Below the pieces are notes generated by a model, which had not been told where the DNA came from, ran no database searches, and saw only the letters and a program-made list of their open reading frames with translations. The translations under genes and the position numbers were made by a program. Source: Escherichia phage muut. From it: 64,000 nt of DNA. Shown piece by piece: positions 8,924 to 54,647 of the stretch. The stretch's first letter is position 1; every line of letters begins with the position of its first letter. The stretch is from sequence record NC_052657.1. The stretch is one strand, 5' to 3'.

Positions 8924-8956
8924 TTTAATGTTTCCTTATCAGTGGTTGATGTAAGT

Positions 8957-9106: not shown

Positions 9107-9472
9107 TTATAAATCTTTTTTACGTTTAACATCGCTTGCATGGCTGTATACAGCGATCCCATTGTCACGGCAAAAACGGGAAAGATACGCGCCGCGTGAA
9201 AACTCTTTACCTTCCAGGTTGATAACCTTGCTAAACTCTTCTAGGGCAACGGTATCAAAATGATCCCCGTATCCATATTGGAACGGCACGTTTACCACTT
9301 CGATCAGTTTACCGCCGATCTCAACGTCAACCATCAAAGAGAAATAAGTATTACCATAAGACTTTTGAAACCAGCGACGGGCGCTAATATGCACCGCTTC
9401 AATGCTGGATAGTTCAATTTTAGCCGTGTTAGCCAGGGTAGCATAAGCGGAAACATTAATATTTTTAGCCAT
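9107..9472 (-). CDS. Hypothetical protein (121 aa)
   Basis: ORF. Confidence 0.5.
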   Translation of the reverse strand: MAKNINVSAYATLANTAKIELSSIEAVHISARRWFQKSYGNTYFSLMVDVEIGGKLIEVVNVPFQYGYGDHFDTVALEEFSKVINLEGKEFSRGAYLSRFCRDNGIAVYSHASDVKRKKDL

Positions 9473-9618
9473 GATTTTATTCCTTAGTAACGCTTCAATT
9501 TATATAAGCATTATAGCTTACTGATTTCAGTTGTCAAGTGATTTTTTATTTCACCTTTGAGGGGGTTGCCCCGCTCTATGTGGTACATATTACGGGGCTT
9601 GTTTGCATATGTCAAGCC

Positions 9619-10173: not shown

Positions 10174-10435
10174 GTTCGTTCGCCTCTTCTGTTAGTAGTT
10201 TACATACCTTAAACATGCTTGCCGCATCTTTTGACGGTAGCCAGCCTATCCGATACACTCCAGGATCTGGATTAGTTATATCAGTTAGTTGCGCGTTGCG
10301 ATGATTAAAAATAGTGTAACCGCCGCCAGCACGGGGATAAACATTATCTTTAAACCTGATAGCGTATCTCGCCAGGTCGAACGTTGTAGCATGTTCAAAA
10401 GCGATCACATTATCAAAAACTTTTAGAAAAAACAA
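10163..10435 (-). CDS. Hypothetical protein (90 aa)
   Basis: ORF overlapping the start of 9619..10173 by 11 nt. Confidence 0.45.
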   Translation of the reverse strand: MFFLKVFDNVIAFEHATTFDLARYAIRFKDNVYPRAGGGYTIFNHRNAQLTDITNPDPGVYRIGWLPSKDAASMFKVCKLLTEEANEHGA

Positions 10436-10437
10436 GA

Positions 10438-10584
10438 TTATCCTCCCCAGCGTTTAAAGCCCGTTGCACGGTTGTTTTTTAGCTCTCGTTTTAGTCTCTT
10501 GCAACGGTTTACAAGTGCAAACCGTGCCGGAGTCGTAACAGTAGCGCCGTTTTTGGTGTGAATACTCATTACATATTGTTTCAT
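10438..10584 (-). CDS. Possible small basic protein (48 aa)
   Basis: Hand-translated ORF downstream of hairpin GCGGGAA-tag-TTCCCGC at 10604-10620. Below the track cutoff. Confidence 0.3.
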   Translation of the reverse strand: MKQYVMSIHTKNGATVTTPARFALVNRCKRLKRELKNNRATGFKRWGG

Positions 10585-10766
10585 AAAGTTTTATCCTATG
10601 TAAGCGGGAACTATTCCCGCTTTAAGATAGCTTATCAGGTTTTAGTGCAACGTCAACCGTTTTTTTAATCTTTTTTCATTTCTTTTTTGCTTGCTATCTA
10701 TAAAGGAAACGGCTATTATCTTTCTACCGCGCCAACCAGGGCGCACATCAAAGAAAGGGCGATACC

Positions 10767-11033
10767 ATGACAAATACCCCTTTACATCTCATGCACTCAT
10801 TGGGCTGGCAAGGCGGCACGGTGCACCAGGTAGCAAGCGCAACGGGCTTAAAGGTTGAAACCGTTCTCAACCTGGGCGATCATAAGGTGGAAGAAATAGA
10901 TCATTTTGATACGTTCGCAAATGGTTATCTATGGGCTTGCAGTGGCGGCGGGGAAAGCAAGATCCCGCCAGGGGCGCGGGGCGACATGTATTTTTGGTTA
11001 GGTGTCCTATCCTGGCAAGAAAACAAAAAATAA
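10767..11033 (+). CDS. Hypothetical protein (88 aa), the only plus-strand ORF in the early block
   Basis: ORF with ribosome-binding site AAAGAAAGGG. Confidence 0.35.
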   Translation: MTNTPLHLMHSLGWQGGTVHQVASATGLKVETVLNLGDHKVEEIDHFDTFANGYLWACSGGGESKIPPGARGDMYFWLGVLSWQENKK

Positions 11034-11035
11034 TC

Positions 11036-11064
11036 TTGACAAGCCCAGGGATCGGGCTTATACT
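11036..11064 (+). promoter_or_regulatory. Strong sigma70-type promoter (TTGACA-N17-TATACT) driving a non-coding region
   Basis: Read directly; the downstream ~100 nt carry GC-rich inverted repeats and no ORF. Confidence 0.45.
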
Positions 11065-11296
11065 GTTTTACATACAGAAGAGGAAGCGCCACCCCCACGG
11101 CGTAAAGGCGGGGCTAACATACCAGGGCACTACTGGTTGGAAGGTTGATCGCCGGTAGCTCGTCTAAAATAAATTTGTAAAGAAATGTAAAGATAAAAAT
11201 AATCGCTTGCTTTTGTTGTTGGTTATGCTATTCTTATTGTATGGCGAGGGGATACGGGAGCGCGAGACAAACACCACCCCTGCGCGTTATTCTCTA

Positions 11297-11408
11297 AATG
11301 AGAAAATTCTTATTTGGTAATGATTCTCATTCTCTTACTGAGAATGATTATCACTTACATAATTAAATGATAATGATTCTCATTTACAAATGAGAATGAT
11401 TATCATCC
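11297..11408. repeat. Cluster of five Fur-box-like palindromic motifs (AATGAT[TA]NTCAT)
   Basis: Read directly: taatgattctcattctc, gagaatgattatcacttac, gataatgattctcatttac, gagaatgattatcatccg and one degenerate copy. Confidence 0.5.
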
Positions 11409-11430
11409 GCACACCCATAAAAACACGAAA

Positions 11431-11628
11431 TTGAACTTTTCATTTTTGATTTTTCTACGGAAAAAGGCAAAAAAACTTTAAATAAACTGGGGAATTTTTA
11501 AAAAATTGAAGTTTTCATTTTCAAAATCTGGACAGAAATACATACAAAAACTTTAAATAATTTTGACCAAACTTGAACTTTTCATTTTCAAAATTTGTAG
11601 CCAAAAATCTGTAAAAACTTTAAATAAT
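11431..11628. repeat. Three direct repeats of about 56 bp (TTGAAsTTTTCATTTT...AAAAACTTTAAATAA)
   Basis: Units at about 11431-11486, 11506-11561 and 11573-11628, read directly; ORF-free and AT-rich. Confidence 0.55.
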
Positions 11629-11845
11629 TTTATCCTTTTTATAAAAATGATTTTACTGTTCTGTTATAAATAGTAGTTAAGAGATAATGTGTCTTTTAAA
11701 AGCCAGATAGCATAGTCCAACAAACAAATTAAATAATTTATTAACAGAGTACAGAATAATATTTACTCTGGATATATTATTCAGAGGGTGGATTTCCGTA
11801 CATGAAACCCACACCCCTTTTATAAAAATAAAAATTTTCAAAATA

Positions 11846-12397
11846 TCAGGAAATATCAGATTGTGTTTTTAGATAAACAGCAAGGTCTGTATGCCATTTT
11901 CCTAAAAGATTTTGTCCTTTCCAACAATCCTTGTTTTCAACATTACGATCCCACATCCCCATTTTGATACCATAAATAGAATCATAAGGGCTTGCCTCTA
12001 CGAACTCCTTATCTGCGTAAGCAATAAGTTTATTTTTGAGATCTTCATTTTGTGTGTATTTAAGATACAAACCACGTTCGACAATCTTCTCCCGTAAAGA
12101 AGTCCAGGTATCTTCATCATAATCCTTAACTAATCTACCTAGTCGCTTATAATATGCTTGTTCTTTTTCTCCTGTATATCTTAGATCTCCGGTTAAAATA
12201 GAAGATGCAATATTGTAATCATAAAACAAACATGCTTTTCTCCACATCATATATTGTTCCACACAAGTAAATTCAACATAACTTGTAATAGAATTATTAT
12301 ACTTGGGAGCTAAAGGTTCAATAAAAGATGATAGATACCAGTTGCTAAATTCATCTTTTGCCGAAAAGAAGAACACATACTTATCAGTAATCCGCAT
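11846..12397 (-). CDS. NADAR/YbiA-like (DUF1768) domain protein
   Basis: Motifs FFFSAKDEFSNWYLSSF, ASPYDSIYGIKMG and GQNLLGKWHTDL resemble the YbiA/NADAR family pattern (FF..SNF.., SP.D..WG.G, G.N.LG). Confidence 0.5.
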   Translation of the reverse strand: MRITDKYVFFFSAKDEFSNWYLSSFIEPLAPKYNNSITSYVEFTCVEQYMMWRKACLFYDYNIASSILTGDLRYTGEKEQAYYKRLGRLVKDYDEDTWTSLREKIVERGLYLKYTQNEDLKNKLIAYADKEFVEASPYDSIYGIKMGMWDRNVENKDCWKGQNLLGKWHTDLAVYLKTQSDIS

Positions 12398-13588
12398 TTA
12401 CACCTCCTTACTGTATACTAATTTGCCACCATATTGTGTAATAATTTTTTGAAGATTTTCCAAATCAGAAACACTTACTGTTTCTGTATAACCATCTTTC
12501 AACTCTCTTTTCGTTAAAATACCAGTTTTTAATTTTTTCTTTATAGCTCTTTCAGCAGCCTTACATTGTTTCACTGTGCTAAAATCATATAAACAAATAC
12601 GCTCCATAAAAAACAGATTACGGCTATTTTGAATGTTTAATCGCCTATCACTATCTTTAGCTATACCAAACTTAAGAGCAACTATAATATTATCATCCTT
12701 AACAATATTAATATATAACTGCTGCTGACTATGACCAGCACACATAGGACAACCTCGACAGCGGCTTAATAAATTATGAGCACTCCCTATCTGCTCACCA
12801 TGCACAAGACAAAGATATTTAAACTTACCTATAGAAGAGGGTTTGGTAATCCAATCTACCCAGACATACCCTTTCCCTTCTACTTCCTTTTTTACCCTAT
12901 AGGTGATCTGGTCTTCTGTATACTGATAGTTCCCACAACGACACGGAATGTACCCTCGTTTAAGGTTATTTCCTTCAGAGTAAAATTTACCATCACAAAC
13001 ACCTGCTTGAACATATTCATCATGAGAGCAAACAGGACATTCAACCATCCAGATACTATGCCTGCGTCCTTTACTCCGTGTTCCTGTGTTAGTGAAGATA
13101 GTGCCTTCCTTAAATTTCCCTGTAGAAAAGAAATCTGCAATATGTTGATCGTCGGGCATTGTTAGTGCCTTCCTTGTATTCTCCCCCCTACATTGTGGAC
13201 AACCTCGACCGCCTTTAAATTGATGAATTGCTGTACTTTGCCATCTATTCCCACAATGGCACAACAAATCAAGTTTTGTTTTATTCCCTTTCCATTCTCC
13301 AACGTACCCTAACACCTGATACCCCTTCTTCTGTGCTATCTCTTCCAAGATCGGCAATTCTGTTTCCCATGTTAACGGCTTCTTACCAGAACAGATAGGA
13401 CAACTGTTGCCGCGCTTGAAATTACTAATACTACAAGTCTTCCATTCATGTTCCTGCCTACAGCGTAGAATCATTTTCGTATCACAACCTATAAACGGTT
13501 CAACATATCCTAGGATCTCAATCCCTTTATTATTCGCAATAGGTTGACACTCTTCTTTATATTGTTCCCATGATTTTGGTGCTGCCAT
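12398..13588 (-). CDS. Zinc-ribbon repeat protein with C-terminal T5orf172 (GIY-YIG-like) domain
   Basis: Several CxxC...CxxC pairs (CPICSG, CPQCRG, CPVCSH, CRGCPMCAGH); C-terminal KFGIAKDSDRRLNIQ...DGYTETVSV matches the T5orf172 pattern (KIGxT..RR...). Confidence 0.6.
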   Translation of the reverse strand: MAAPKSWEQYKEECQPIANNKGIEILGYVEPFIGCDTKMILRCRQEHEWKTCSISNFKRGNSCPICSGKKPLTWETELPILEEIAQKKGYQVLGYVGEWKGNKTKLDLLCHCGNRWQSTAIHQFKGGRGCPQCRGENTRKALTMPDDQHIADFFSTGKFKEGTIFTNTGTRSKGRRHSIWMVECPVCSHDEYVQAGVCDGKFYSEGNNLKRGYIPCRCGNYQYTEDQITYRVKKEVEGKGYVWVDWITKPSSIGKFKYLCLVHGEQIGSAHNLLSRCRGCPMCAGHSQQQLYINIVKDDNIIVALKFGIAKDSDRRLNIQNSRNLFFMERICLYDFSTVKQCKAAERAIKKKLKTGILTKRELKDGYTETVSVSDLENLQKIITQYGGKLVYSKEV

Positions 13589-13662
13589 CTACTACTCCTC
13601 TTATTAAATCTGGCATTAATGCAAGAAAACCCGCCGAAGCGGGTTTTTATTTGCTGGCTTAC

Positions 13663-14790
13663 TTAAAACACACTTGCCAAAGTTGCACCATTGGTGATAG
13701 TTGGTTCCAGAACAATACGGAAAGAATCTTCTGGATCATCACTAAACACAACGATTTTACCGCCTGTAATAAGATCTGCTTTCATTTTTGTCGCATTCAA
13801 TGGAATTCGAGCATCGCCTTCATCATCAAAAACCACGTAAGAGCTATTAGCAAGGGCTTCTTTAGAATCTGCATCACTTGGAGATGACAAGTACACGTCC
13901 AGTGTGCACGAACCACCTAAAAAGATTGCAGGTGTGAAGTTATGCCAACTAGATACCCAGCTAACTTTCTGAAGTTTCCCATTAATAACAACACTGCTGA
14001 TATCCCATTTATTACCACCACCTAAAGAAACACCCATCATAGAGATGCATTCTTTAAAGGATAAATCAGGGTAGAAATTAAGTTCTTCTACTATACCTTG
14101 GATCACATCAAAGGACAACTCTAAACTTACATCCCAAAGTCTTTGGAAATTATCAAAGTGTGCTTTGTTATCCAGGTTTTTATCTAAATAGTCCATCATA
14201 GTTTCTAGTGAGATTTTATCATAATTAAAATTATAAAACACACGACTAGGACGATTTAAAAAGAATTCAGAGATAAAGCCACTGTTTTTAGTCAGAATAA
14301 ACAGTTTATTACCACTGCCAGTACCATCTAACAAAGTGAGAAGTGCTTCTTGATCTTGTTTCTTCTCATATACTTTATCAAATTCATCAAAAATAATCAC
14401 TGCTTTGTCTGTGATCTTGCTAATAAGTTCAATGAAATTAGCATCACTGTAGGCTTGAGTAACCATAATAGTTGGAATACCTTCTTCTACAAGGTCACGA
14501 CTAATGAGTTTGGCTAACATAGTTTTACCACTGCCCTTAGTGCCTGTCAGGAGCAAACCTGTATTTTTACCTTGTGCACTCCGGCGATGGAATGTACGAA
14601 TAACGTGATTTGCTCGTTTTTCTGTTTCACCATACAGAACATCCGGTACACCTGTTAGATTACCACGGCTTAAAAAGTAATTGCCAAGGGGATCACGACT
14701 AACAGTATAGAATCCAGGTGGAAGATAGTTAGATTCCACGCCCATATCTTTATTTACACTTACAATATCACCATAAATCGTGTATTTCAT
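13663..14790 (-). CDS. AAA+ ATPase, paralog A
   Basis: Walker A GTKGSGKT, Walker B IIFDEFDK, sensor LTKN, NRPSR; about 45% identical in the ATPase core to 30498..31658. Confidence 0.65.
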   Translation of the reverse strand: MKYTIYGDIVSVNKDMGVESNYLPPGFYTVSRDPLGNYFLSRGNLTGVPDVLYGETEKRANHVIRTFHRRSAQGKNTGLLLTGTKGSGKTMLAKLISRDLVEEGIPTIMVTQAYSDANFIELISKITDKAVIIFDEFDKVYEKKQDQEALLTLLDGTGSGNKLFILTKNSGFISEFFLNRPSRVFYNFNYDKISLETMMDYLDKNLDNKAHFDNFQRLWDVSLELSFDVIQGIVEELNFYPDLSFKECISMMGVSLGGGNKWDISSVVINGKLQKVSWVSSWHNFTPAIFLGGSCTLDVYLSSPSDADSKEALANSSYVVFDDEGDARIPLNATKMKADLITGGKIVVFSDDPEDSFRIVLEPTITNGATLASVF

Positions 14791-14801
14791 TTTAACCCCT
14801 T

Positions 14802-15239
14802 TTATTTTTGTTGAGATGAACGAATTAAATCAGCAGCAAATTCAATCAGATACACTTTTGGTGCAATAATGATTTTTAGCCAATCAAAATTCGAAAAGAA
14901 AATAACAAATCCTAAAAAGAAAAAGAAAGCACAGACAACAAGACCAACAATAGGTAAAGCAGATACTTCACCATAGCGATCTCGTGACCACAGGCATTCT
15001 TTATCTTTAATTGCTTTTACGAGGTTCCGTACAGCAATAAAAGTAATAAACATAAAGCAAATACTAAAAAGTTGCCATAAACCTGCGGATACTGCTTTCC
15101 ACACTAATAATTGATGAATTACTTCTGGAATTTGTTGTTTTCCAAACTCTACAACATCACTCATTGTTTGAATAGTGACGTTAACCATGTTCAGAAGTAC
15201 ATCAGTTGCTTTATCTGCGATTGCGTTTGTTTTACTCAT
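14802..15239 (-). CDS. Hypothetical membrane protein (about 2 TM segments)
   Basis: Hydrophobic stretches LWQLFSICFMFITFIAV and IVGLVVCAFFFFLGFVIFF. Confidence 0.5.
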   Translation of the reverse strand: MSKTNAIADKATDVLLNMVNVTIQTMSDVVEFGKQQIPEVIHQLLVWKAVSAGLWQLFSICFMFITFIAVRNLVKAIKDKECLWSRDRYGEVSALPIVGLVVCAFFFFLGFVIFFSNFDWLKIIIAPKVYLIEFAADLIRSSQQK

Positions 15240-15253
15240 TCTTTATTCCTCAC

Positions 15254-15427
15254 TTACCTTTTAAGGAAACCAATCATAATGAAGAACCACATCCAGGCAG
15301 GAGAGATAATAAAGCCAAAGAAACCGCAAATAACCGCTTTCTTAATCTCTTCCAGACAACCCACCAGGAAAAGAACGAGTGAGACTACAATCCAGATAGC
15401 CATAAATACTGTAACAAAGAAACTCAT
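15254..15427 (-). CDS. Possible small membrane protein (57 aa)
   Basis: Hand-translated MSFFVTVFMAIWIVVSLVLFLVGCLEE...; ribosome-binding site GGGAGAAAGG. Below the track cutoff. Confidence 0.35.
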   Translation of the reverse strand: MSFFVTVFMAIWIVVSLVLFLVGCLEEIKKAVICGFFGFIISPAWMWFFIMIGFLKR

Positions 15428-15447
15428 ACCTTTCTCCCATCTGTATT

Positions 15448-15699
15448 TTAAAATTCAACCACTACTTTATCGAGATGCTCTGCTTCAACTTGATCTAAGG
15501 TTAACACCTCAACTAAACCTTTGTCAATACCTAATTTAATAACATCAACATATTGTCCAAACAGATCCTGAATAGATATCTTGTGTTCGACAACAACCAC
15601 CACTTCATTTCCTTTTGTGAATTCTCTCCATACACGTCCACATTTGAAAATAAAGTCTGCTTCGTCTTCTGTTATCATTTTAGGTTTGATACTTAACAT
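15448..15699 (-). CDS. Hypothetical protein (83 aa)
   Basis: ORF; stop overlaps the start of the downstream gene. Confidence 0.45.
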   Translation of the reverse strand: MLSIKPKMITEDEADFIFKCGRVWREFTKGNEVVVVVEHKISIQDLFGQYVDVIKLGIDKGLVEVLTLDQVEAEHLDKVVVEF

Positions 15700-16250
15700 T
15701 ATAAAACTCCGTACTCCGGCTCAAAATCATATTTTTCACAAATCATATCCCAGCGTTCGTTGCCGAAGCTGCGACCACAAATTGCATCGTAAGCGTAATG
15801 CTCTGCTAACCATTTTACAACAGTGTCTACATCGTTATCAAGTGGTAATCTGAATTCTTTGCCATATCGCATACGAAGAACAAATTCATCCCCTTCTTCA
15901 AACAAGTGCATATGGCTTTTTGCATAAGAAGCCAGGTTGAAAAAAGATACCTCTTCCCAGCATTCTTTTTCCACTGCAATCCCGTGATCAACAACTAAAG
16001 CACCGATAACGCGATACATAATAGGGCTAAACAGTGCGCTTGGGCTAGGCTGCTCTTCAACTATAGACCAACCTGTTCCCTGCCAAATTTCATTTTTGAA
16101 CCATTGTTGCATGTCATTCCCTTTTTCATCTACAATGGATCGGTTACGCATTTCAAACCATTCTCCTTCGCAAAAGTATTTATGTTTAACGCGCTTGCCT
16201 TTTAACATTGCTTCTTTGGCTTCTATCCAAGTCAGATCGGTGTTTTGCAT
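15699..16250 (-). CDS. Hypothetical protein (start trimmed to Met with GAGGAGA ribosome-binding site)
   Basis: N-terminus MQNTDLTWIEAKEAMLKGKRVKH resembles a common small phage domain (DUF2829-like F.EAl.al..GkkvrR); family assignment by recollection only. Confidence 0.5.
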   Translation of the reverse strand: MQNTDLTWIEAKEAMLKGKRVKHKYFCEGEWFEMRNRSIVDEKGNDMQQWFKNEIWQGTGWSIVEEQPSPSALFSPIMYRVIGALVVDHGIAVEKECWEEVSFFNLASYAKSHMHLFEEGDEFVLRMRYGKEFRLPLDNDVDTVVKWLAEHYAYDAICGRSFGNERWDMICEKYDFEPEYGVL

Positions 16251-39943: not shown

Positions 39944-40738
39944 ATGTCCAATAAAATCAGTCTTAAAAAACGTCAAGAAACTCTTACTGTATCCCTGCGT
40001 AAGAAAAAGATTAACGATGTTGTTCTTCGTGTAGGTAGCGCCTTAGATATTTCGGGTAGTATGTGTGAGCTGTATCGTGATGGCACTGTTAGCGATTTTG
40101 TAGGTAAACTGCTGCCGTTTGGTATGAAGTTTGATGATAATGCACAGATTGACATGTGGGCTTTCAATAGTTCTTCTTTTGAACTGCCTCCTGCAACGGC
40201 TGATGTGTATGATGATTATGTCGGCTCTTGCATGTCTAATGTTTGCATCAACGGTGGTACTGCTTATGCTCCAGTAATGCAAGAGATCTATGATACATAC
40301 TTCGGTAGTGTACCTATGAAAAATATTACACGCGAAGTCGTTGAGTATGAAGAAGTTCCGGCTAAAGGTTTCCTTGCTAAACTAACTGGTAAAAAAGAAC
40401 TTGTAGAAGTAACACGTACTGTTGTAGAACAGGTTGTAGATACTGATGCACAAGTTGATCGTACTCCTGCAATGATTTTCTTCCAAACTGACGGGGAGAA
40501 CATGGATACTTCAGCAGTACGTAGCTTACTGAACAAACACCGCAATACGCCTGTTTACTGGTTTATGGTTGGTGTAGGTAATGCAAACTTTAAATTCCTG
40601 AAAGACTTGGCAAAAGAATACGATAATGTTGATTTTATCGGTATTGCAGATTTGTCCTTGTCTGACGAAGAACTTTACGATAAACTGCTATCTGAAGAGT
40701 TTGGTGAGTGGGTTAAAAAATTTGGAGCAAAAGCGTAA
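39944..40738 (+). CDS. von Willebrand factor A (vWA) domain protein, TerY-like
   Basis: MIDAS-like motif VGSALDISGSM; N-terminus (ISLKKRQETLTVSL) resembles the start of the adjacent TerD protein. Confidence 0.55.
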   Translation: MSNKISLKKRQETLTVSLRKKKINDVVLRVGSALDISGSMCELYRDGTVSDFVGKLLPFGMKFDDNAQIDMWAFNSSSFELPPATADVYDDYVGSCMSNVCINGGTAYAPVMQEIYDTYFGSVPMKNITREVVEYEEVPAKGFLAKLTGKKELVEVTRTVVEQVVDTDAQVDRTPAMIFFQTDGENMDTSAVRSLLNKHRNTPVYWFMVGVGNANFKFLKDLAKEYDNVDFIGIADLSLSDEELYDKLLSEEFGEWVKKFGAKA

Positions 40739-40810
40739 AAAACGCTTGACTTTGTAGAAAAGATTAGTAAAATAGACAACGTAAATTAACAACAAAGGAG
40801 ATAATAAATT

Positions 40811-41407
40811 ATGACTCAGAAAATTTCCCTGAAAAAAGGTTCTAGCGAAAAAGTTTCTCTGAAAAAGATTGCACCAGCACTGAAACGCATTCGTCTGGAA
40901 TTCTCTTGGAAATCTAACGAAAAACTGGATCTGGATGTTAGTGCTCTGATTTGCCGACACAATGCATCTGGTCTGCCGGAACTGTTGTCTCCTCGTCACC
41001 TGGTGTGCTACGCGCAGAAATTTGATCCTGAACGTTCTACTTTTGCAGGTGAAGATGTTCGTGATGGTGTAGGACAGATGGAGCAGATTGATGTTACACT
41101 GGATAATATCTCTGCTGAAGCACAGGAAATTGCATTCGTAATTACTATTGATGACGAAACGGGTAAGAAACGCCTTGGTCACGCTACCGAAGGTTTCCTT
41201 AAAATCTTCGATGATGAACGTAATGTTGAACTGCTGGACTTTGACTTCTTGGCTCCAGAACTTGCAGGTAACACCATTTGCCACGTTGCCTCCCTGGTGC
41301 GAGAAGATAGCGAATGGAAACTGAAAGCATATGGTGTGGGTAAAGCTGGGCTTGACATTTACGATGTAGTTAAAGCGTTTGGCGCTGGCGACGATTGGTT
41401 CGAGTAA
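40811..41407 (+). CDS. TerD-domain protein (TerD/TerE/TerZ family)
   Basis: ISLKKGSSEKVSLKK...LDLDVSALI...DGVGQMEQIDVTLDNI...WKLKAYGVG matches the TerD pattern (ISL.KG..V.L...DLD.S...GDDE.I.....W...A.G.G). Confidence 0.65.
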   Translation: MTQKISLKKGSSEKVSLKKIAPALKRIRLEFSWKSNEKLDLDVSALICRHNASGLPELLSPRHLVCYAQKFDPERSTFAGEDVRDGVGQMEQIDVTLDNISAEAQEIAFVITIDDETGKKRLGHATEGFLKIFDDERNVELLDFDFLAPELAGNTICHVASLVREDSEWKLKAYGVGKAGLDIYDVVKAFGAGDDWFE

Positions 41408-42154: not shown

Positions 42155-42664
42155 TTGTCAATAAAAACCTTTGTCGCAATTGCGTTACTATCCTTAACTG
42201 CTTTTACATTTACACCTGTTGTGGCGCAAGCCGAAGCTGCAAACGTAAAAACTGCTAAAGTAGTTCACAAGTGTACAAAGCGTGATAGTAAAGAAAATCT
42301 ATTAGCTTGTGCAATCTATGCAGAAAGTCGTAATCAAGGAAAGCGCGGTATGTCTGCTGTTGGTAATGTAGTATTGAATAGGGCTAGAGATTCATATTTC
42401 CCTGATACTATAAAAGAAGTTTTGTTTCAAAAAGGACAATTCTCTTACACAAAGACATTCAACGTTATGGAACGTGATAAGTGGAAGGAAGCTAAGGCTA
42501 TAGCAGAACGTCTACTTTATCTCGATACGCATTTTCCAGAATTACGAATTGCATTAGATATTACAAAAGGAGCATTATACTTTAAAAAATCTACAATAAG
42601 AGCACACTGGGAAAAAGATATGGTTCTAGTGTACCGCTACAAAGAACATCAATTCTATCGCTAA
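42155..42664 (+). CDS. Secreted SleB/CwlJ-like cell-wall hydrolase (candidate endolysin)
   Basis: Signal peptide (SIKTFVAIALLSLTAFTFTPVVAQA) then ACAIYAESRNQ...GNVVLNRA...QFSY, which resembles the Hydrolase_2 family; TTG start after GGAGG. Confidence 0.55.
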   Translation: MSIKTFVAIALLSLTAFTFTPVVAQAEAANVKTAKVVHKCTKRDSKENLLACAIYAESRNQGKRGMSAVGNVVLNRARDSYFPDTIKEVLFQKGQFSYTKTFNVMERDKWKEAKAIAERLLYLDTHFPELRIALDITKGALYFKKSTIRAHWEKDMVLVYRYKEHQFYR

Positions 42665-42953: not shown

Positions 42954-43183
42954 TGGCTGATGTTATTGAAGTTAACTTTAAAACAAAAAAGAAAGTTGAT
43001 AAGTATACAATCTTAAAAAATATTTGCGTTGTGTGCTTCAATTCTGTAATATATGACTCACGTAAGGGCGAAAATGAAAATGAACCTTACATCCAGATTT
43101 CTAAAGGTAAAGGGCAGTGTATCTGCAAAAACTGTGCTGTAGCAATTAAGGAGGTTGTAGATGAAAACCATTGGGATCAATGA
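42953..43183 (+). CDS. Hypothetical zinc-ribbon protein (76 aa, start trimmed)
   Basis: CVVCFNS...CICKNCAV. Confidence 0.45.
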   Translation: MADVIEVNFKTKKKVDKYTILKNICVVCFNSVIYDSRKGENENEPYIQISKGKGQCICKNCAVAIKEVVDENHWDQ

Positions 43184-43355
43184 TACTGGTGAAGTTGTAA
43201 AATCTTGGGATGATCTTAGTGGTATCCCTACAGATAAACTGATTAAACTGCGTGATGTTTGTCGTGATCATCTTAATGAAACATATAAAGAGTATATGGA
43301 AGCACGAGATCACAGTTTAGCTATCCAAATGGAACTCGCAAAACGTAATCAATAG
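43161..43355 (+). CDS. Hypothetical small protein (64 aa)
   Basis: ORF. Confidence 0.4.
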   Translation: MKTIGINDTGEVVKSWDDLSGIPTDKLIKLRDVCRDHLNETYKEYMEARDHSLAIQMELAKRNQ

Positions 43356-43412
43356 GTAAAACCATTTGGACTTTTTAGTCTAAAAATGCTAAAGTAATAA
43401 TACGGAGGGAGT

Positions 43413-43976
43413 ATGATATTTCACATAACTCCCTATCTTTCTGGAGATATTGGAAAAGGTATCAATGACACAATAAGTGTCTTACCAGAAGATAGTTGGA
43501 TTTGCCTAAGAGACATTGATACAATGTTTCTTCTTCCAGAACAACCTGCTTGGCTGGAATCAATTGTCCGTTCAAATCCTGATTTTGATGTTCTTGGTGC
43601 ATCTTGTAACAGATTGGGATCAACATATCAATTATTTAATAATGAAAGAAGTGAAGATCCGAATATATTACACCACATTGAGATTGCAAAAAGAGCACAT
43701 CTAGAATGGGGAAACTCAATAGAGGAAGTACCTACAGATGCTATCTTAGCAGGATTCTTTCTTCTCTTTCGTAAGAGTCTGTGGAATGAAATTCCTTTTG
43801 AGGAAAGATCAATACAGTTTGATATAATTTTCTCTAAAGCATTGCACGCTAACAATAAAAGGCTAGGTTTACTACGTGGGTTATATTTATTTCACACATA
43901 CCGTTTAGGTAATGATGATCCTAGAAAAGCTGTTTCACACCTTTTACATTGTCAAGACATGAATAAAATTATTTAA
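43413..43976 (+). CDS. Hypothetical protein, possibly glycosyltransferase-like (187 aa)
   Basis: ORF; weak resemblance only. Confidence 0.4.
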   Translation: MIFHITPYLSGDIGKGINDTISVLPEDSWICLRDIDTMFLLPEQPAWLESIVRSNPDFDVLGASCNRLGSTYQLFNNERSEDPNILHHIEIAKRAHLEWGNSIEEVPTDAILAGFFLLFRKSLWNEIPFEERSIQFDIIFSKALHANNKRLGLLRGLYLFHTYRLGNDDPRKAVSHLLHCQDMNKII

Positions 43977-43985
43977 GGAGTTATT

Positions 43986-44672
43986 TTGGAAAATACAAAA
44001 ATTGGTGTTGGTGTTATTACTGTAGGTAAGCGTCCTCTTAAAGATTATCTTGTGACTGATCCTAGTGCTACTTTTGTTGTACAGTATGATCGGGAACGAA
44101 AAGGTGTTGCATATGCTCGTAATGAACTGATGAAAAAGTTTTATGATGAAGGATATGATTACTGGTTTATTTTTGATGATGATTGCTATCCTGTTGTTCA
44201 AGGTTGGGAAACATATTTTGTAAAACAGGCGAAGGAAAATGGTTGGGATTTCTTTGGTATGCCTGAATACTTTAAAGATAAAGTAAAAGGTATTGAAGGG
44301 GAAGTGGTTATTTGGGAGCTAGGAATGTGCCAGTTTGGTATGTATTCCCGTGCAGTTATTGAGAAAGCTGGCTATTTCCGCTCATACACCCACGGCTATG
44401 GGTATGAAGATGCAGAGTGGATTCATCGCGTCCCACTGGCAGGTTTGAACCGAGGTATTCAAGGCGTACCATGTCCTATTCGAATTATGGCGTTTATCCA
44501 TCCTGATGATGTATTTGGAGACAATCCTTTACCTTTTGCGAATCTGTCAAAAGAAGAGAAAGAACAGGGGATTGGTGTAAACTGGGAACAATATAAACAA
44601 TCCCTGGAGGATCTTCGCAATGGTAAAACTTTTATCTCTTATGAGGAGGCTCAAAAATATGGTAAATCCTAA
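43986..44672 (+). CDS. Glycosyltransferase-like protein (GT-A-like DxD motif)
   Basis: WFIFDDDCYP acidic motif; TTG start. Confidence 0.45.
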   Translation: MENTKIGVGVITVGKRPLKDYLVTDPSATFVVQYDRERKGVAYARNELMKKFYDEGYDYWFIFDDDCYPVVQGWETYFVKQAKENGWDFFGMPEYFKDKVKGIEGEVVIWELGMCQFGMYSRAVIEKAGYFRSYTHGYGYEDAEWIHRVPLAGLNRGIQGVPCPIRIMAFIHPDDVFGDNPLPFANLSKEEKEQGIGVNWEQYKQSLEDLRNGKTFISYEEAQKYGKS

Positions 44673-45633
44673 TACTCCTGTACTTAAGTGTGATAATAAG
44701 TTAGGCAGTGGTTGTGATTACCATCGTATTGTAATGCCATTTGCTGGAAATACGTTTAAACCTAAGAAAGACGTTTTAGTTTTTAATAGAGTGTATTCTC
44801 GTGGATCAGACGAAGTTAAACGCCTGAAGGCACAAGGTGTTAAGATTATTGTTGATTTAGATGATTTTTATTCGCTTAATCCTGAACATTATATGGCTGG
44901 CGTATTTACTAATCACTCAAAGACTATTGTAGAGATGATTAAGTTAGCAGATGTGGTTACTGTAACAACAGAATACCTAGCTTACAAAATTCGTCATTTA
45001 AATCGTAATGTTGTCGTTATTAGAAACGCACTACCTTACGACGAAGGTCAATTTACTTTGACAAAAGACCGTTATTCTGACACGCCTATTATTTGGGCGG
45101 GAGGAGCAAGCCATGAACCTGATTTATCTCTTGTAGCTAATACATTTGATGATACGCTATTGACAATTGCAGGGTATGAAGTGTATCCTTCTGCACCTGT
45201 TGGAAATAATAGTCAGTATCTAACTACTGCGGAGTGGGTTAAAGTAAAACGTAAAATTCCAAATGCACAGTATAAACCAGCTATTAAAAATTTAGGTGAG
45301 TATATGTCTGTGTATGACGGTCACAGTATTGCAATTGCTCCTCTGGTAGATAATGACTTCAACAACTGTAAAAGCAATTTGAAGATTTTGGAAGCAGGTG
45401 CAAAGGGTCTTCCTATTATCTGTTCTCCTGTGCTGCCGTACTTCAATCCGGTAGATGCAAAGGCTGTTATCTATGCAGACTCTAAAGCATCTTGGCATTA
45501 TGAAGTTGTCAAGCTAATGAGGAACCCTAGATACACAGAAGATCGTGGTATGATGCTTGCAGAACACGTTCGTCTTAATTATAATCTTGCAGATGCTAAT
45601 GAACTGCGTCGTCAAGTTATTGAAAGTCTTTAA
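44659..45633 (+). CDS. Glycosyltransferase-like protein, tandem paralog 1
   Basis: Shares LTKDRYSDTPIIWAGGASHEPDL and NNCKSNLKILEAGAKGLPIICSP with the next gene; start trimmed to Met after GAGGAGG. Confidence 0.55.
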   Translation: MVNPNTPVLKCDNKLGSGCDYHRIVMPFAGNTFKPKKDVLVFNRVYSRGSDEVKRLKAQGVKIIVDLDDFYSLNPEHYMAGVFTNHSKTIVEMIKLADVVTVTTEYLAYKIRHLNRNVVVIRNALPYDEGQFTLTKDRYSDTPIIWAGGASHEPDLSLVANTFDDTLLTIAGYEVYPSAPVGNNSQYLTTAEWVKVKRKIPNAQYKPAIKNLGEYMSVYDGHSIAIAPLVDNDFNNCKSNLKILEAGAKGLPIICSPVLPYFNPVDAKAVIYADSKASWHYEVVKLMRNPRYTEDRGMMLAEHVRLNYNLADANELRRQVIESL

Positions 45634-45644
45634 TAAGGAGCTAT

Positions 45645-46589
45645 ATGCCTAATATTATTCTTGACACACGCGGAAATGAAAAGTATAGTGTATGTGATTT
45701 TCATAGAATCATTTTGCCATATAAACGCAAACTGACCATTAATCCTAAGCATAATATTTTTGTGTTCAATGGAGTACCAACACGTGGAAAGCCAGGTTTC
45801 CTGGCTCTTAAACAACTTGGGTTTAAATTGGTAATGGATCTGGATGATTCTTTAATTATTCCTGAAGGGCATATGCTTGAAGGATTATTTGAAAATCAAA
45901 TCCGAGATGACCTAAAATGGTTCCTTGAAAGAAGTGATCTTGTAACTACAACAACTCCGGCATTAAAGGTTGAATTAAGCCAATACAATGATAATGTACA
46001 TATTGTGCCTAACGGACTACCTTTTGATGAAGGACAGTTTGTTCTTACTAAAGATCGTTATTCTAAAAGTCCACTGGTTTGGGCGGGAAGTGAAACACAT
46101 AAACATGATTTAGCAATTCTTCCTGATTTTGGTAAAGATTTAACTTTATGTGGATTTCGTAGAGATCACGAAGAGTTGAGTAGTGCTCAATGGTTGCAAA
46201 TTAAAGAAGATATTCAACCAGATTGTGTTTATGAAGGTATTCGTCCTTATGAGTGTTATATGGAAGCATACGATGGTCATCAAATCTCCATAGCTCCGTT
46301 AGTAAATAATCATTTTAATAATGCCAAAAGTAATTTAAAAATTCTTGAAGCTGGTGCTAAAGGTTTGCCACTCGTTTGTTCACCACGAGAGAACTACTAT
46401 ACTGAAGAATTTAAAGATCTAATCTTCTTTGCTGATTCAGTTAAAGAGTGGAAAGATATTGTAGAATACTTAATCGAATCTCCTGATGTTTGTATTGAGA
46501 AAGGATTAGCTCTTGCTAAGTATGTAAGAGATAACTACAATATTGATGATTTAAATGAAACCCGCAGACTGCTTATCGAGGATTTATAA
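45645..46589 (+). CDS. Glycosyltransferase-like protein, tandem paralog 2
   Basis: LTKDRYSKSPLVWAGSETHKHDL and NNAKSNLKILEAGAKGLPLVCSP. Confidence 0.55.
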   Translation: MPNIILDTRGNEKYSVCDFHRIILPYKRKLTINPKHNIFVFNGVPTRGKPGFLALKQLGFKLVMDLDDSLIIPEGHMLEGLFENQIRDDLKWFLERSDLVTTTTPALKVELSQYNDNVHIVPNGLPFDEGQFVLTKDRYSKSPLVWAGSETHKHDLAILPDFGKDLTLCGFRRDHEELSSAQWLQIKEDIQPDCVYEGIRPYECYMEAYDGHQISIAPLVNNHFNNAKSNLKILEAGAKGLPLVCSPRENYYTEEFKDLIFFADSVKEWKDIVEYLIESPDVCIEKGLALAKYVRDNYNIDDLNETRRLLIEDL

Positions 46590-46858
46590 TGAACACTTTT
46601 GATTTTGAGTATAAACAAGATAATAAAGAACCTATTATTGTTGAAGTAGATTACTATTATGAAGAACCTAACCCTTTCTCACGAGAAAGTGATTGGGATT
46701 ATTATGGTGGTCTTATTGTTGATGGTATTAGATTTTATTCTGGTACAAAAGAACTTTTTGATATAGATATTTCCCCATCGGAAATTGTTTACCAATTTAA
46801 GAAACATATGGAAGATTTGGAAATGCAATATATTATGGAGACAAACGAATCATTTTAG
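46589..46858 (+). CDS. Hypothetical protein (89 aa)
   Basis: ORF, translationally coupled. Confidence 0.45.
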   Translation: MNTFDFEYKQDNKEPIIVEVDYYYEEPNPFSRESDWDYYGGLIVDGIRFYSGTKELFDIDISPSEIVYQFKKHMEDLEMQYIMETNESF

Positions 46859-46870
46859 TAGGAGAATCCT

Positions 46871-48643
46871 GTGTCTTATGTTGTAAATAAATATGGGTAT
46901 AACATTGATCTAAGTCAAGAAGGACATACTGGGTGTCCTCGTTGTATGAAAGGAGGGCGTGATCGATCACAAAACAATTTGATGGTATATGGCTTAGATG
47001 CCGATGAAGACCATCGAGGCGCACATTGTTTTTCTTGTGGCTTTACTATCCCTGATCAAAAATGGTTAAATGCGCACGGCGAAGAAATTGAAGAGGAGGA
47101 TATCTTGGGTAGTGAGTTTAATCCAGAAGTACATGATAAACTAAAAGCCAGCACTGGAACTAATCCAAAAGGTTATCGCGGTATTCGTGAAGATATCTCT
47201 AAGCCTTTCGGTGTACGCTATATGTACGATGAAGCTACTGGCGAAGTAATTTCAACACTATACCCTACAACTAAAGATTACAATATTGCTGGGTATAAAC
47301 AACGTATCGATCCAAAAGATTTCTCACATCCTATCGGTGAAACAGGAAAGGATTGTGATCTTTTTGGGGAGTTTAAATATCGTAACCACAGCGGTACTAT
47401 TCTAATCGTTGGTGGTGAACACGATATGCTGGCTGCAACACAGATGCTAAAAGATTATAACAAGGGTGGTAAATATCCTGTTCCTGCTGTAGTATCTGGT
47501 ACTTGTGGCGAAACATCTCTGCATAAGCAGCTTCAACATCGTTATAAATTCTTAGATCAATTTAAAAAGATTGTTCTATGTATGGATAATGATGAAGCTG
47601 GACGTGCAGCAGTTGAGAAATGTGTTAAAATCTTACCACGTAATAAAGTTTACGTGATGGAACTAACGGATGTTAAAGATCCTAACCAGGCACTAGTAGA
47701 AGGAAAAATTGATCATTTTATTGATCGCTTTTTCAAAGCTAAATTGTACACACCTGCTGGTGTTTACGCTTCTAACGTACTGTATGAAGCAGCCTTGGAA
47801 TGCCTGGAAGCTAAAATGATCACCCTTCCTCCATTCATGCGTGTTGCTTCTAATATGTTAGGTGGAGGCTTGGTAGAAGAAGAAATTACTGTTATACTTG
47901 CAAAAACAAGTATCGGTAAGACACTGTTGGTTAACGAGATTACAAAGCACATTATTCTTGCACATCCAGAACATACTCTTGGTATTTTATCTTTGGAGGC
48001 AACGTATAAGAAGTATTCTCGTAACTTACTGTCTTCATTCTTGCATATCCCTCTTCACCGTAAAACGAAAGAAGAGAAGGAAAAGATTTTAAAAGATAAT
48101 GAAGAAAAGATTCGTGATTTTTACGAACGAGAAGATGGAACACCACGTTTCTATGTTTGTGATGATCGTGGAGCTAACGTAGATGTGATTAAAGAGAAGG
48201 TTCTGGAAATGATTATTTATTTCGGAGTAACCATTCTTGTTATCGACCCTTATTCTGATTTGCTTTCTGGTATGGACGTGTCACAACAAGAGGAACTTGC
48301 GACGTGGCTGAAACGCATTATGAAAGAGTATGCAATAACCATTGTTGTAATTTCACACGTTAAAAAGTCTTCTAACAATAGTAATGAACATATTGTAGAA
48401 GATGATGCAATGGGTAGTAGCTTCCTTGCTAAAGGTGCTGGTATCACAATTGCGCTGGAGCGTGATAAACAAGCTGAAGATCCTATGGAACGTAACCGCA
48501 CATATTGCTACATTCTAAAGAACCGTGAGTTCTCAGAGACTGGTGCAGCAGGTAGTTTCTTCTATGAGATTAAAACAGCTACACTTCACGATTACGATCA
48601 ATACACAAGTAACCCAGAGAACATCTCTGCTGGTTCTTATTAA
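46871..48643 (+). CDS. DNA primase-helicase (T7 gp4-like: zinc-binding primase plus DnaB-like helicase)
   Basis: N-terminal CPRCMKGG...CFSCGF zinc finger; C-terminal P-loop AKTSIGKT; GTG start after GGAGAA. Confidence 0.7.
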   Translation: MSYVVNKYGYNIDLSQEGHTGCPRCMKGGRDRSQNNLMVYGLDADEDHRGAHCFSCGFTIPDQKWLNAHGEEIEEEDILGSEFNPEVHDKLKASTGTNPKGYRGIREDISKPFGVRYMYDEATGEVISTLYPTTKDYNIAGYKQRIDPKDFSHPIGETGKDCDLFGEFKYRNHSGTILIVGGEHDMLAATQMLKDYNKGGKYPVPAVVSGTCGETSLHKQLQHRYKFLDQFKKIVLCMDNDEAGRAAVEKCVKILPRNKVYVMELTDVKDPNQALVEGKIDHFIDRFFKAKLYTPAGVYASNVLYEAALECLEAKMITLPPFMRVASNMLGGGLVEEEITVILAKTSIGKTLLVNEITKHIILAHPEHTLGILSLEATYKKYSRNLLSSFLHIPLHRKTKEEKEKILKDNEEKIRDFYEREDGTPRFYVCDDRGANVDVIKEKVLEMIIYFGVTILVIDPYSDLLSGMDVSQQEELATWLKRIMKEYAITIVVISHVKKSSNNSNEHIVEDDAMGSSFLAKGAGITIALERDKQAEDPMERNRTYCYILKNREFSETGAAGSFFYEIKTATLHDYDQYTSNPENISAGSY

Positions 48644-53915: not shown

Positions 53916-54647
53916 ATGAGCGAATTTGTAAACAACACCGCATTAAACTACCTGCAAACCCTCGAAAGCAATAGTGTAGATTTGATTCTTACTGACCCAC
54001 CATATGCTATTTCTCGTGACACAAATTTTCAGTCTGGAGAGCCTACTGGAAAAGATACGGATAGATTCCGTGTATCTTACAACTTCGGTGATTGGGATGT
54101 TGTAGATATTCCTTACTTTAAAGAAGTATTCAAAGAAGCCTACAGGGTGCTTAGAAAAGGTGGTACTTGCATAGTTTGGTATGATATCTGGAAGATCCAG
54201 GAACTACGTGAAATCCTTGAACCGCTTGGTTTTCGTATGTTCCGTACCATCGAATGGATTAAAACAAACCCTGTACCCATCAACAGTGGTGTTAACTACC
54301 TTAGTAACGCTAAAGAGATGGCTATTGTTTGTGTTAAAGGTTCGAAACCAACCTTCAATGCTTCCTACCATAAGGGTGTGTTTGAGTATCCTATCTATCA
54401 AGGAGCAGATCGTTTTCATCCAACACAAAAACACTTGACTTTGTTTTGTGACCTTATTAATATACACACCAACGAAGGAGATGTAGTCTTAGACTTCTTC
54501 TCTGGAAGTGCAACAACACAAGTTGCGGCACTTTTAACAGGTAGAGAATACTTAGGCTGTGAAGCCGATGTAAATATTTTTAAGCAAGCGGAGGAACGAC
54601 TAAATGAGTACACTGAACAGCAAAATCACCCTGAAAGCACTGATTAA
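53916..54647 (+). CDS. DNA methyltransferase (N6-adenine or N4-cytosine, beta class)
   Basis: DPPY motif (LILTDPPYAI) upstream of the SAM-binding motif VLDFFSGSATT. Confidence 0.7.
   Translation: MSEFVNNTALNYLQTLESNSVDLILTDPPYAISRDTNFQSGEPTGKDTDRFRVSYNFGDWDVVDIPYFKEVFKEAYRVLRKGGTCIVWYDIWKIQELREILEPLGFRMFRTIEWIKTNPVPINSGVNYLSNAKEMAIVCVKGSKPTFNASYHKGVFEYPIYQGADRFHPTQKHLTLFCDLINIHTNEGDVVLDFFSGSATTQVAALLTGREYLGCEADVNIFKQAEERLNEYTEQQNHPESTD

Follow-up and report, generated by a model that had tools for sequence, protein, structure and literature searches.

The window analysed here, a stretch of 64,000 nucleotides from Escherichia phage muut (NC_052657.1), belongs to a phi92-like coliphage (Justusliebigvirus), and its positions 43000-47000 are 100% identical to phage vB_EcoM_ZYD. 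The original prediction placed four glycosyltransferase-like genes at 43413-46589. All four open reading frames are present on the + strand, and the glycosyltransferase identity was upheld for each of them. Annotations of these genes already exist in public records, and the cluster has been discussed before as part of a known phage. Together with the reading frame that follows them, they are arranged as follows:

GT1 (phi92 gp166): 43413..43976, + strand; 187 aa, soluble, minimal GT-A-fold glycosyltransferase
GT2 (phi92 gp165): 43986..44672, + strand; 228 aa, TTG start, soluble GT-A-fold glycosyltransferase
GT3 (phi92 gp164): 44659..45633, + strand; 324 aa, GT-B (GT4-like), paralog of GT4
GT4 (phi92 gp163): 45645..46589, + strand; 314 aa, GT-B (GT4-like), paralog of GT3
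ORF matching phrog_4240 (E 8e-35): 46589..46858, + strand; 89 aa, between GT4 and the primase/helicase gene, overlapping the GT4 stop codon

The four glycosyltransferase genes are co-directional and closely packed, and each is preceded by a strong Shine-Dalgarno sequence: GGAGG 5’ of 43413, AAGGAG 5 nt 5’ of the TTG at 43986, GAGGAGG 8 nt 5’ of 44659 and AAGGAG 5’ of 45645. For GT3, public records use a longer ORF from 44620; the start at 44659 is preceded by a better ribosome-binding site and agrees with the N-termini of the paralog and of the homologs. An ORF of 85-89 aa occupies the position equivalent to 46589..46858 in the divergent relatives L010 and L011, and it is uncertain whether this ORF is part of the cassette.

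Directly downstream of the cassette come the genes for the primase/helicase and the DNA polymerase; this part of the phage genome is devoted to replication and host takeover and is separate from the structural region. The cassette also adjoins a Ter/vWA/PRTase/HAD/macrodomain gene block, with genes for TerD, vWA-TerF and a secreted cell-wall hydrolase upstream. Since no intrinsic terminator was found from about 41.4 kb to 48.6 kb, the cassette is probably co-transcribed with the primase/helicase gene. A promoter scan returned 34 sigma-70-like sites compared to 27.3 +/- 5.4 expected, which is not above chance, and we therefore refrain from inferring the timing of expression. The DNA methyltransferase gene that had been predicted at 53916 was confirmed as an ORF at 53916-54647, whose counterpart in the annotated relative EmilieFrey is a Dam-like methyltransferase; the phage encodes both Dam- and Dcm-like methyltransferases.

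Two GT-A and two predicted GT-B glycosyltransferases

Each of the four proteins has a match in a PHROG glycosyltransferase family (E 1e-79 to 1e-149), none of them is covered by an NCBIfam model, and transmembrane segments were detected in none. GT1 matches phrog_14179 (E 5.5e-113) and has no Pfam match. Its AlphaFold model (pLDDT 93.8) retrieved from the PDB, by Foldseek, the GT-A enzymes LARGE1, the Listeria TDP-rhamnose transferase RmlT and LH3 with TM scores of 0.45-0.5; the models of GT1 and GT2 match GT-A enzymes only, with a Foldseek probability of 1.00 and TM scores of 0.4-0.5. The D34-x-D36 motif of GT1 is unchanged across 26 sequences, and D34, D36, T37, N66, R67, H161, Y163, R164 and H176 are invariant. 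At 50% identity, the GT1 family divides into 1229 clusters, and fusions to other glycosyltransferase domains or to Methyltransf_24 are frequent in it. Some homologs of GT1 and of GT2 pass the Glycos_transf_2 or Glyco_transf_7C thresholds, and searches of PDB sequences with single proteins and with profiles returned nothing for either enzyme.

GT2 matches phrog_2456 (E 3.5e-79). With its AlphaFold model (pLDDT 89.5), Foldseek found STIV A197, COLGALT1, WrtF and TarP; TM scores of 0.71-0.72 were reached against viral glycosyltransferase-like proteins, and the fold neighbours include GT25/GT2-like proteins of megavirus, tupanvirus and pithovirus. The acidic FIFDDDCYP motif to which the original prediction had drawn attention proved to be conserved: D64-D65-D66 is invariant in 17 homologs, and E141-D142 is likewise an invariant pair. 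The sole Pfam match of GT2 is TAGT (PF20691), with 22.1 bits compared to a gathering score of 27.5 (E 1.6e-4), and aligns residues 26-79 to profile positions 47-100, i.e. 54 of 205 positions. This match recurs in 11 of the 17 family members, with a best family E-value of 1.5e-4, and the N-terminal region of GT2 is weakly similar to both TAGT and phrog_842. Family members also match Glycos_transf_2 and Glyco_transf_7C. Membership of GT2 in the TAGT family was rejected, as the score is below the threshold and a quarter of the model is covered.

The proposed paralogy of 44659..45633 and 45645..46589 is evident: over 324 aa, the two proteins are 41% identical (E 4e-83), and they share unchanged stretches such as SNLKILEAGAKGLP and LTKDRYS. 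Both proteins match phrog_7162 (E 3e-149 for GT3, 2e-145 for GT4). GT4 matches Pfam Glyco_trans_1_2 with 26.8 bits, over the gathering score of 25; GT3, to which it is 41% identical, is under the Pfam threshold (18.2 and 14.8 bits). In their family, Glyco_trans_1_4 is matched by 22 of 28 members and the N-terminal Glyco_transf_4 by seven, and MshA and TreT were weakly matched (E 0.006-0.03) when PDB sequences were searched with a profile. GT3 and GT4 retain all invariant residues of the family, because both are rows of the alignment (A3) from which these residues were read. Judged by sequence, GT3 and GT4 are GT-B enzymes of the GT4-like type (Pfam Glycos_transf_1 clan).

Altogether, these data show that the four products of the cassette are soluble glycosyltransferases of the Leloir type. 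Two are minimal GT-A enzymes that have DxD metal and nucleotide-sugar binding sites and are unrelated to each other, and the other two are paralogs of the GT-B type. As the HMM and structure searches led to glycosyltransferase families and GT-A folds, and not to other protein families, the gene identification stands, while the DNA acceptor that had been inferred for these enzymes falls, as detailed below. The acceptor cannot be read from GT-A/GT-B similarity. An acidic pI (5.1-5.6, compared to 9.05 for the T4 beta-glucosyltransferase) was computed for three of the four enzymes, and isoelectric point and hydropathy are weak hints in favour of the best guess given below.

Likely sugar donor and gene neighbourhood of the homologs

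The same genome that carries the cassette carries a complete dTDP-L-rhamnose pathway (rmlBACD). In EmilieFrey, the four enzymes were called by NCBIfam equivalog cut-offs, with 442 bits for RmlB (cut-off 365), 471 for RmlA (361), 260 for RmlC (156) and 254 for RmlD (224); in ZYD, the four rml genes are annotated at 114767-118028, outside the window. The rml operon and the cassette share the same phage groups, namely the phi92-like and phAPEC8-like phages and their Klebsiella relatives. The resemblance of GT1 to Listeria RmlT, which exists at the level of the fold only, is the sole hint of dTDP-rhamnose use. The donor is likely a dTDP-sugar and not UDP-glucose.

Distant homologs of all three enzyme types reside within or beside the head and packaging modules of other phages, or in mycobacteriophage cassettes of a type that is reported to glycosylate virions. 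In Cellulophaga phage phi18:2, the C-terminal half of gp39 is a GT1 domain, and the gene lies between the portal/MuF and the prohead protease/capsid genes, adjoining a Methyltransf_24 gene. A 36-kb metagenomic phage contig carries a GT-A gene of the GT2 family (E 1e-19) and a GT-B gene of the GT3/4 family side by side, immediately 5’ of the terminase, portal and capsid genes and on the same strand, and a second contig has a similar layout. Among 50,697 phage genomes, homologs of GT2 outside this phage lineage were restricted to about 350 glycosyltransferases of mycobacteriophages and Gordonia phages. GT2 is homologous to the mycobacteriophage cassette members TChen gp98 (HMM E 6e-23) and I3 gp250 (2e-21), and in the cluster F phages examined its homologs are found in the right-end cassette, in the place of Che8 gp108-110. 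Furthermore, a Burkholderia homolog of GT3/4 directly follows the gene for an adhesin of the intimin/invasin type, a hint of a protein acceptor. The neighbours of a gene in distant phages carry little weight as evidence on the acceptor, since DNA methyltransferases and morons adjoin terminase genes too.

Candidate acceptors of the glycan

Our best guess, put forward tentatively, is that the cassette builds a rhamnose-containing glycan on an acceptor other than DNA, probably a virion protein. Acting in sequence, the four enzymes would assemble a short glycan of up to about four sugars, rhamnose included. This glycan would be attached not to DNA but most likely to phage structural proteins of the head or of the tail and fibres, giving rise to glycosylated virions, an outcome like that reported for cluster F mycobacteriophages, in which capsid and tail tube are glycosylated. 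It is conceivable, if somewhat doubtful, that the phi92-like and phAPEC8-like coliphages in general decorate their own virion proteins with such a phage-made glycan. In the literature consulted, no report of sugar on virion proteins of phi92-like phages was found. Ser/Thr-rich C-terminal tails were considered as a proxy for acceptor proteins and dropped, as they did not correlate with the cassette: the EmilieFrey sheath ends in ...NSQNSNSSTVSS, a Ser-rich C-terminal tail, phAPEC8 has the same cassette without a sheath tail of this type, the major capsid, decoration and tube proteins did not stand out in this respect, and the capsid protein of the L016 contig is devoid of a Ser/Thr-rich tail.

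A remodelling of the host envelope is an unlikely alternative to virion proteins. Rhamnose or other sugars would be transferred at the cytoplasmic face onto the LPS core or onto undecaprenyl-linked intermediates of O-antigen, ECA or other surface glycans, and the altered surface of the infected cell would, for example, block superinfection or keep progeny phages off the debris. GT2-like GT-A and GT4-like GT-B enzymes combined with Rml proteins are the usual toolkit of LPS/O-antigen loci; however, a flippase, a polymerase and a membrane anchor were not found, and none of the four enzymes has a transmembrane segment. Among the structural neighbours are wall-polymer transferases (TarP, RmlT) and polysaccharide synthases (heparosan synthase, K4CP), and the TerD, vWA-TerF and hydrolase genes upstream of the cassette are envelope-related; homologs in other phages, on the other hand, are located in head and packaging modules. 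Phage entry has been published to need surface glycans and LPS core, but known phage glycan conversion is the work of temperate phages, this phage is strictly virulent, and one lytic cycle leaves little time for fresh glycan to appear at the surface.

We regard it as improbable that the acceptor is a host protein, a non-structural phage protein, an RNA or a small molecule. Such a reaction could be the Arg or Ser rhamnosylation of a translation or defence factor, the inactivation of an antiphage compound, or the production of a glycoside metabolite connected with the Ter, PRTase and HAD genes nearby. The position of the cassette beside the Ter/vWA/PRTase/HAD/macrodomain block and the many host-takeover and NAD-salvage genes of this phage are consistent with such a role, but four transferases and a dedicated sugar pathway exceed what the attachment of one sugar to one factor requires, and the context of the homologs does not point to a particular small molecule or RNA.

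The original prediction favoured T4-type glycosylation of DNA as a protection against restriction, and a rhamnosylation of DNA had already been proposed by Olsen et al. 2020. According to this idea, rhamnose or another sugar would be attached to a hydroxylated base, perhaps at sparse or sequence-specific sites. It would fit the location of the cassette, which lies just upstream of the primase/helicase and DNA polymerase genes much as b-gt lies among the replication genes of T4, the partial and weak TAGT match of GT2 and its family, and the presence of Dam- and Dcm-like methyltransferases. Phi92-like phages that are 98.5-98.7% identical over the cluster have nevertheless been published as ‘exceptionally susceptible’ to RM systems. 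In the published raw plating data, EmilieFrey formed no plaques on EcoRI, EcoRV and EcoP1I hosts, for which it has 70, 100 and 114 sites, respectively, by the apparent reading of the published table’s columns. Moreover, Pau and PATM were reported to be BREX-sensitive (about 7 logs) and are outside the set of phages sensitive to BrxU (GmrSD), a modified-cytosine nuclease. A hydroxymethylase, which the original prediction had not seen in the window, was not found in a wider search either: phmmer with T4 gp42 as query retrieved no ThyA-family ORF from the 1295 ORFs of the window and of a 98.6%-identical relative’s complete genome, and the thymidylate synthase of this relative is ThyX-like. A TET/JBP dioxygenase is not among the annotations, and neither GT3 nor GT4 matches the Pfam AGT or BGT families at E<=1. 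Kinship to the T4 beta-glucosyltransferase was rejected, as hhalign of the GT3/4 family against T4 BGT gave a probability of 1.4%. A nucleoside analysis of phi92-like DNA was not found in the literature; the 2026 Durham Collection paper covers BrxU-sensitive phages only. Because near-identical phages are restricted, virion proteins are a likelier target than DNA, and glycosylation of DNA by the cassette is very improbable and not supported by these data.

Relation to known glycosylation systems and implications

Virion protein glycosylation has its closest precedent in mycobacteriophages, namely in Che8 gp108-110 and in the allelic cassettes that other cluster F and C phages carry (Freeman et al. 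2023, as cited in PMC11256854). Like the phi92-like cassette, the mycobacteriophage cassettes are multi-gene and encode small soluble GT-A enzymes, and that of Che8 lies outside the structural module. Methyltransf_24, the partner of the GT1-domain family, recurs as the methyltransferase domain in glycosyltransferase gp108 of Che8. When all four proteins were compared by blastp with Che8 gp108-110, the best E was 0.35, and direct homology was rejected; homology is limited to the allelic cassette genes in other mycobacteriophages. The phi92-like cassette further differs in its Gram-negative host, its virulent myovirus background, its two extra GT-B paralogs and the dTDP-rhamnose pathway of the phage itself.

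The DNA glycosyltransferases of T-even phages are likewise phage-encoded soluble GT-B (AGT, BGT) and GT-A (TAGT) enzymes encoded among replication genes, and the beta-glucosyl-HMC alpha-glucosyltransferase of T2/T6 belongs to the TAGT family to which the N-terminus of GT2 is weakly similar. In contrast, for the phage with the cassette neither a hydroxymethylase nor resistance to restriction was found, and the donor is likely a dTDP-sugar instead of UDP-glucose. Bacterial glycosyltransferases for LPS, O-antigen and wall polymers that operate with RmlABCD (WaaG/MshA-like GT4 enzymes, Listeria RmlT, and also the phage-encoded TarP) share the folds, the donor pathway and the combination of GT-A with GT-B. 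The phage enzymes are much smaller and are devoid of extensions for membrane association or acceptor binding, and, unlike the bacterial loci, the virulent phage has no Wzx, Wzy or initiating transferase. Giant viruses (Mimiviridae, chloroviruses) also encode a nucleotide-sugar pathway together with several glycosyltransferases, and rhamnose pathways encoded by the virus serve the glycosylation of their capsids and fibrils. They are viruses of eukaryotes, and their likeness to GT2 is at the fold level only.

For the phages concerned, the ‘rhamnose-modified DNA’ of Stephanstirmvirinae that is repeated in the literature is an unsafe basis for predicting escape from restriction. If virion proteins are indeed the acceptor, glycosylated virions would be reported for the first time in phages of Gram-negative bacteria, and for the first time in a phage that supplies its own nucleotide-sugar pathway. 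The GT-A and GT-B pair and the GT1 domain family, which has no Pfam model and more than 1200 clusters, would then mark such systems in many uncultured phages. Phi92-like phages have host ranges among the broadest of coliphages and are under consideration for therapy. A glycan coat, if present, would influence how antibodies recognise the particles, how stable they are in the gut, and their pharmacokinetics, an argument already made for mycobacteriophages. It would also extend virion glycosylation to phages with Gram-negative hosts.

The cassette and its surroundings in phi92-like phages

Four plus-strand ORFs, each with a strong Shine-Dalgarno sequence, make up the cassette in the arrangement of the original prediction:

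43413-43976, + strand, GT1, 187 aa
43986-44672, + strand, GT2, 228 aa
44659-45633, + strand, GT3 (begun at 44620 in public records)
45645-46589, + strand, GT4

The annotated GT3 start, which creates a 53-nt overlap with GT2, is probably too long. We prefer the ATG at 44659 because a GAGGAGG ribosome-binding site lies 8 nt upstream and this start coincides with the N-termini of the paralog and homologs.

In database nucleotide comparisons, positions 43000-47000 were 100% identical to Escherichia phage vB_EcoM_ZYD and 98.4-99.7% identical to about 50 further phi92-like phages (Justusliebigvirus, Stephanstirmvirinae). Phi92 itself is one of these, as are EmilieFrey and PaulScherrer of the BASEL set and Paula and PATM of the Durham set. 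The four ORFs are the counterparts of phi92 gp166-gp163. The cluster is already known: many public records annotate its genes as glycosyltransferases (the BASEL records distinguish two “putative glycosyltransferases” from two “putative disaccharide synthases”), and earlier papers contain the proposal of DNA rhamnosylation as well as its clash with restriction sensitivity. ZYD is a Justusliebigvirus, although its record places it in Vequintavirinae/Vequintavirus. Several unannotated “Campylobacter phage” records with C. jejuni as host (MG065639, MG065689, MG065656, MG065644 and others) encode proteins 99% identical to those of E. coli phi92-like, phAPEC8-like or rV5-like phages, and mislabelling or contamination is the probable explanation.

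The stretch immediately before the cassette, 39944-41407 (+), codes for vWA-TerF-like (PF10138, E 1e-38) and TerD (PF02342, E 5e-28) proteins. The Eryne record labels both counterparts “HNH endonuclease”, at odds with the Pfam result, and divergent relatives add TerC, TelA and Band_7 within the same block. The 169-aa protein of 42155-42664 (+), with a TTG start, an apparent N-terminal signal peptide and a SleB-type cell-wall hydrolase domain (Hydrolase_2, E 6.5e-20), is predicted to be a second, secreted lysin-like enzyme, whose gene is remote from those annotated as endolysin and spanins. Three genes upstream, at about 32-34 kb and in the same transcription direction (EmilieFrey bas61_0068-0070), encode a HAD-like hydrolase, a phosphoribosyltransferase (“Zot-like toxin” in the Eryne record) and a macrodomain protein. 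Together with sirtuin, NAMPT and PRPP synthetase genes outside the window in the same genome, they suggest NAD or ADP-ribose-related counter-defence.

Enzyme classes

The predicted glycosyltransferase identity was confirmed by very strong matches of all four proteins to PHROG glycosyltransferase families; transmembrane segments were found in none of them. GT1 matched no Pfam or NCBIfam model. Its AlphaFold model (pLDDT 93.8) gave structural matches to GT-A enzymes only, including LARGE1, LH3 and RmlT, a TDP-rhamnose transferase from Listeria, and a D-x-D is invariant in the family. When 1.84 billion representatives were searched with the family profile, 1229 clusters at 50% identity emerged, of which 950 reached E<=1e-10. 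The domain occurs free-standing (~180 aa) or fused with other GT domains (GT2, GT25, TOD1_MUCI70) and sometimes Methyltransf_24; about one third of the top matches are ~400-aa fusions with a TOD1_MUCI70-like domain, and one triple fusion includes Methyltransf_24. The ~180-aa GT1 domain defines a large GT-A family lacking a Pfam or NCBIfam model.

GT2 showed no sequence kinship to GT1 on comparison. Its model (pLDDT 89.5) has a GT-A fold resembling STIV A197, COLGALT1, WrtF and TarP, with TM scores of 0.71-0.72 against viral GT-like proteins, and within the acidic motif FIFDDDCYP, singled out earlier, DDD is invariant in 17 homologs. GT3 and GT4 proved to be the expected paralogs (41% identity over full length, E 4e-83, with identical blocks in common), and both keep all family-invariant residues. 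From profile matches they are assigned as GT-B, GT4-like enzymes: GT4 exceeds the Pfam Glyco_trans_1_2 threshold, 22 of 28 family members match Glyco_trans_1_4, and weak matches to MshA and TreT came from a search with the family profile.

Putative sugar donor and the case against DNA as acceptor

The EmilieFrey genome (98.6% identical) carries rmlD, rmlC, rmlA and rmlB outside the window, all four products scoring above NCBIfam equivalog cut-offs; the ZYD annotation lists an identical set. The operon and the cassette are found in the same groups: phi92-like phages, phAPEC8-like phages and Klebsiella relatives. The pathway was pointed out by Olsen et al. (2020), who suggested that hydroxymethylated nucleotides are rhamnosylated. 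Maffei et al. (2021) named it “putative dTDP glycosylation machinery”.

The original prediction had favoured T4-type, anti-restriction glycosylation of DNA bases. The phenotypes of near-identical phages speak against this. Maffei et al. described phi92-like phages as “exceptionally susceptible” to RM systems, and in their raw data EmilieFrey plated at 2.7e7 pfu with the vector control, against zero plaques on EcoRI, EcoRV and EcoP1I hosts, its genome having 70, 100 and 114 sites, respectively, by our reading of the table columns. BREX restricts Pau and PATM about 1e7-fold, and both are absent from the phages hit by BrxU (GmrSD), an enzyme cutting a broad range of modified cytosines (Picton et al.).

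The original prediction had seen no hydroxymethylase in the window; with T4 gp42 as phmmer query, neither the window nor the whole genome of a relative yielded a ThyA-family ORF, and the annotated thymidylate synthase of EmilieFrey is ThyX-like. To our knowledge, all known DNA glycosyltransferases require a hydroxylated base. No kinship of GT3/4 to T4 beta-glucosyltransferase was detected (hhalign 1.4%), the AGT and BGT Pfam families gave no match at E<=1, and a TAGT match of GT2 was sub-threshold and spanned one quarter of the model. On these restriction, BREX, BrxU, hydroxymethylase and homology results, the evidence says that the acceptor is not DNA, at least as regards bulk modification. 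We consider DNA a very improbable acceptor overall; sparse or sequence-specific modification may occur.

Homolog neighbourhoods and the proposed acceptor

Synteny of the cassette extends to divergent relatives, where it invariably comes directly before an 85-89 aa ORF, primase/helicase and PolA; one relative has a sugar-nucleotide epimerase/dehydratase inserted. In Cellulophaga phage phi18:2 the GT1 domain makes up the C-terminal half of gp39, whose gene lies within the head module, between portal/MuF and prohead protease/capsid genes, and adjoins a Methyltransf_24 gene; a Methyltransf_24/TylF domain also occurs in the Che8 glycosyltransferase gp108. On a 36-kb phage contig, adjacent GT2-family GT-A (E 1e-19) and GT3/4-family GT-B genes stand directly upstream of, and on the same strand as, terminase, portal, protease and capsid genes. 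In two further phage contigs a GT3/4 homolog is accompanied by a GT-A and sugar-modifying genes, in one of them again just before the terminase. Outside the phi92-type lineage, GT2 matched glycosyltransferases of mycobacteriophages and Gordonia phages, about 350 in all; the cluster F homologs examined occupy the right-end cassette position held by Che8 gp108-110. Glycans on capsid proteins are reported for cluster F phages such as Che8 (PMC11256854, citing Freeman et al., 2023).

Because of this head-module context, virion glycosylation is the leading hypothesis, and a virion protein is the most likely acceptor, though we hold this tentatively, from homolog context. Several proxies for a protein acceptor, among them similarity to Che8 gp108-110 and Ser/Thr-rich C-terminal tails of structural proteins, failed. 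A host envelope glycolipid or undecaprenyl-linked glycan is an unlikely acceptor, and another protein, RNA or small molecule somewhat less likely still. Outside phages, a Burkholderia dolosa contig (JAIMDN010000082, 3025-8440) encodes a 411-aa GT3/4 homolog (35% identity) directly downstream of two genes, one for an intimin/invasin-type inverse-autotransporter adhesin (IAT_beta, Big_1, Invasin_D3), the other for a 571-aa protein without Pfam match, and may be an adhesin-glycosylation locus. A 41-kb metagenomic phage contig (28% GC), which also encodes a UDG domain fused to PolA, carries a glycan-synthesis island (7980-15873) downstream of a sigma-factor-like gene. The island encodes a GT3/4 homolog together with a GT2-family GT-A and another GT-B, as well as an RmlD-like epimerase/dehydratase, a DegT aminotransferase and a radical SAM/SPASM enzyme.

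Altogether, the data establish the classes of the enzymes and their paralogy, the presence of a rhamnose pathway and its common distribution with the cassette, and how near-identical phages respond to restriction. This analysis adds the fold-level classes of GT1 and GT2, the recognition of a large Pfam-less GT-A domain family, a recurring GT-A plus GT-B module, and the head-module context that puts virion glycosylation first among the hypotheses. In the most likely mechanism, the four enzymes would use phage-made dTDP-L-rhamnose in assembling a short glycan, the acceptor being something other than DNA.
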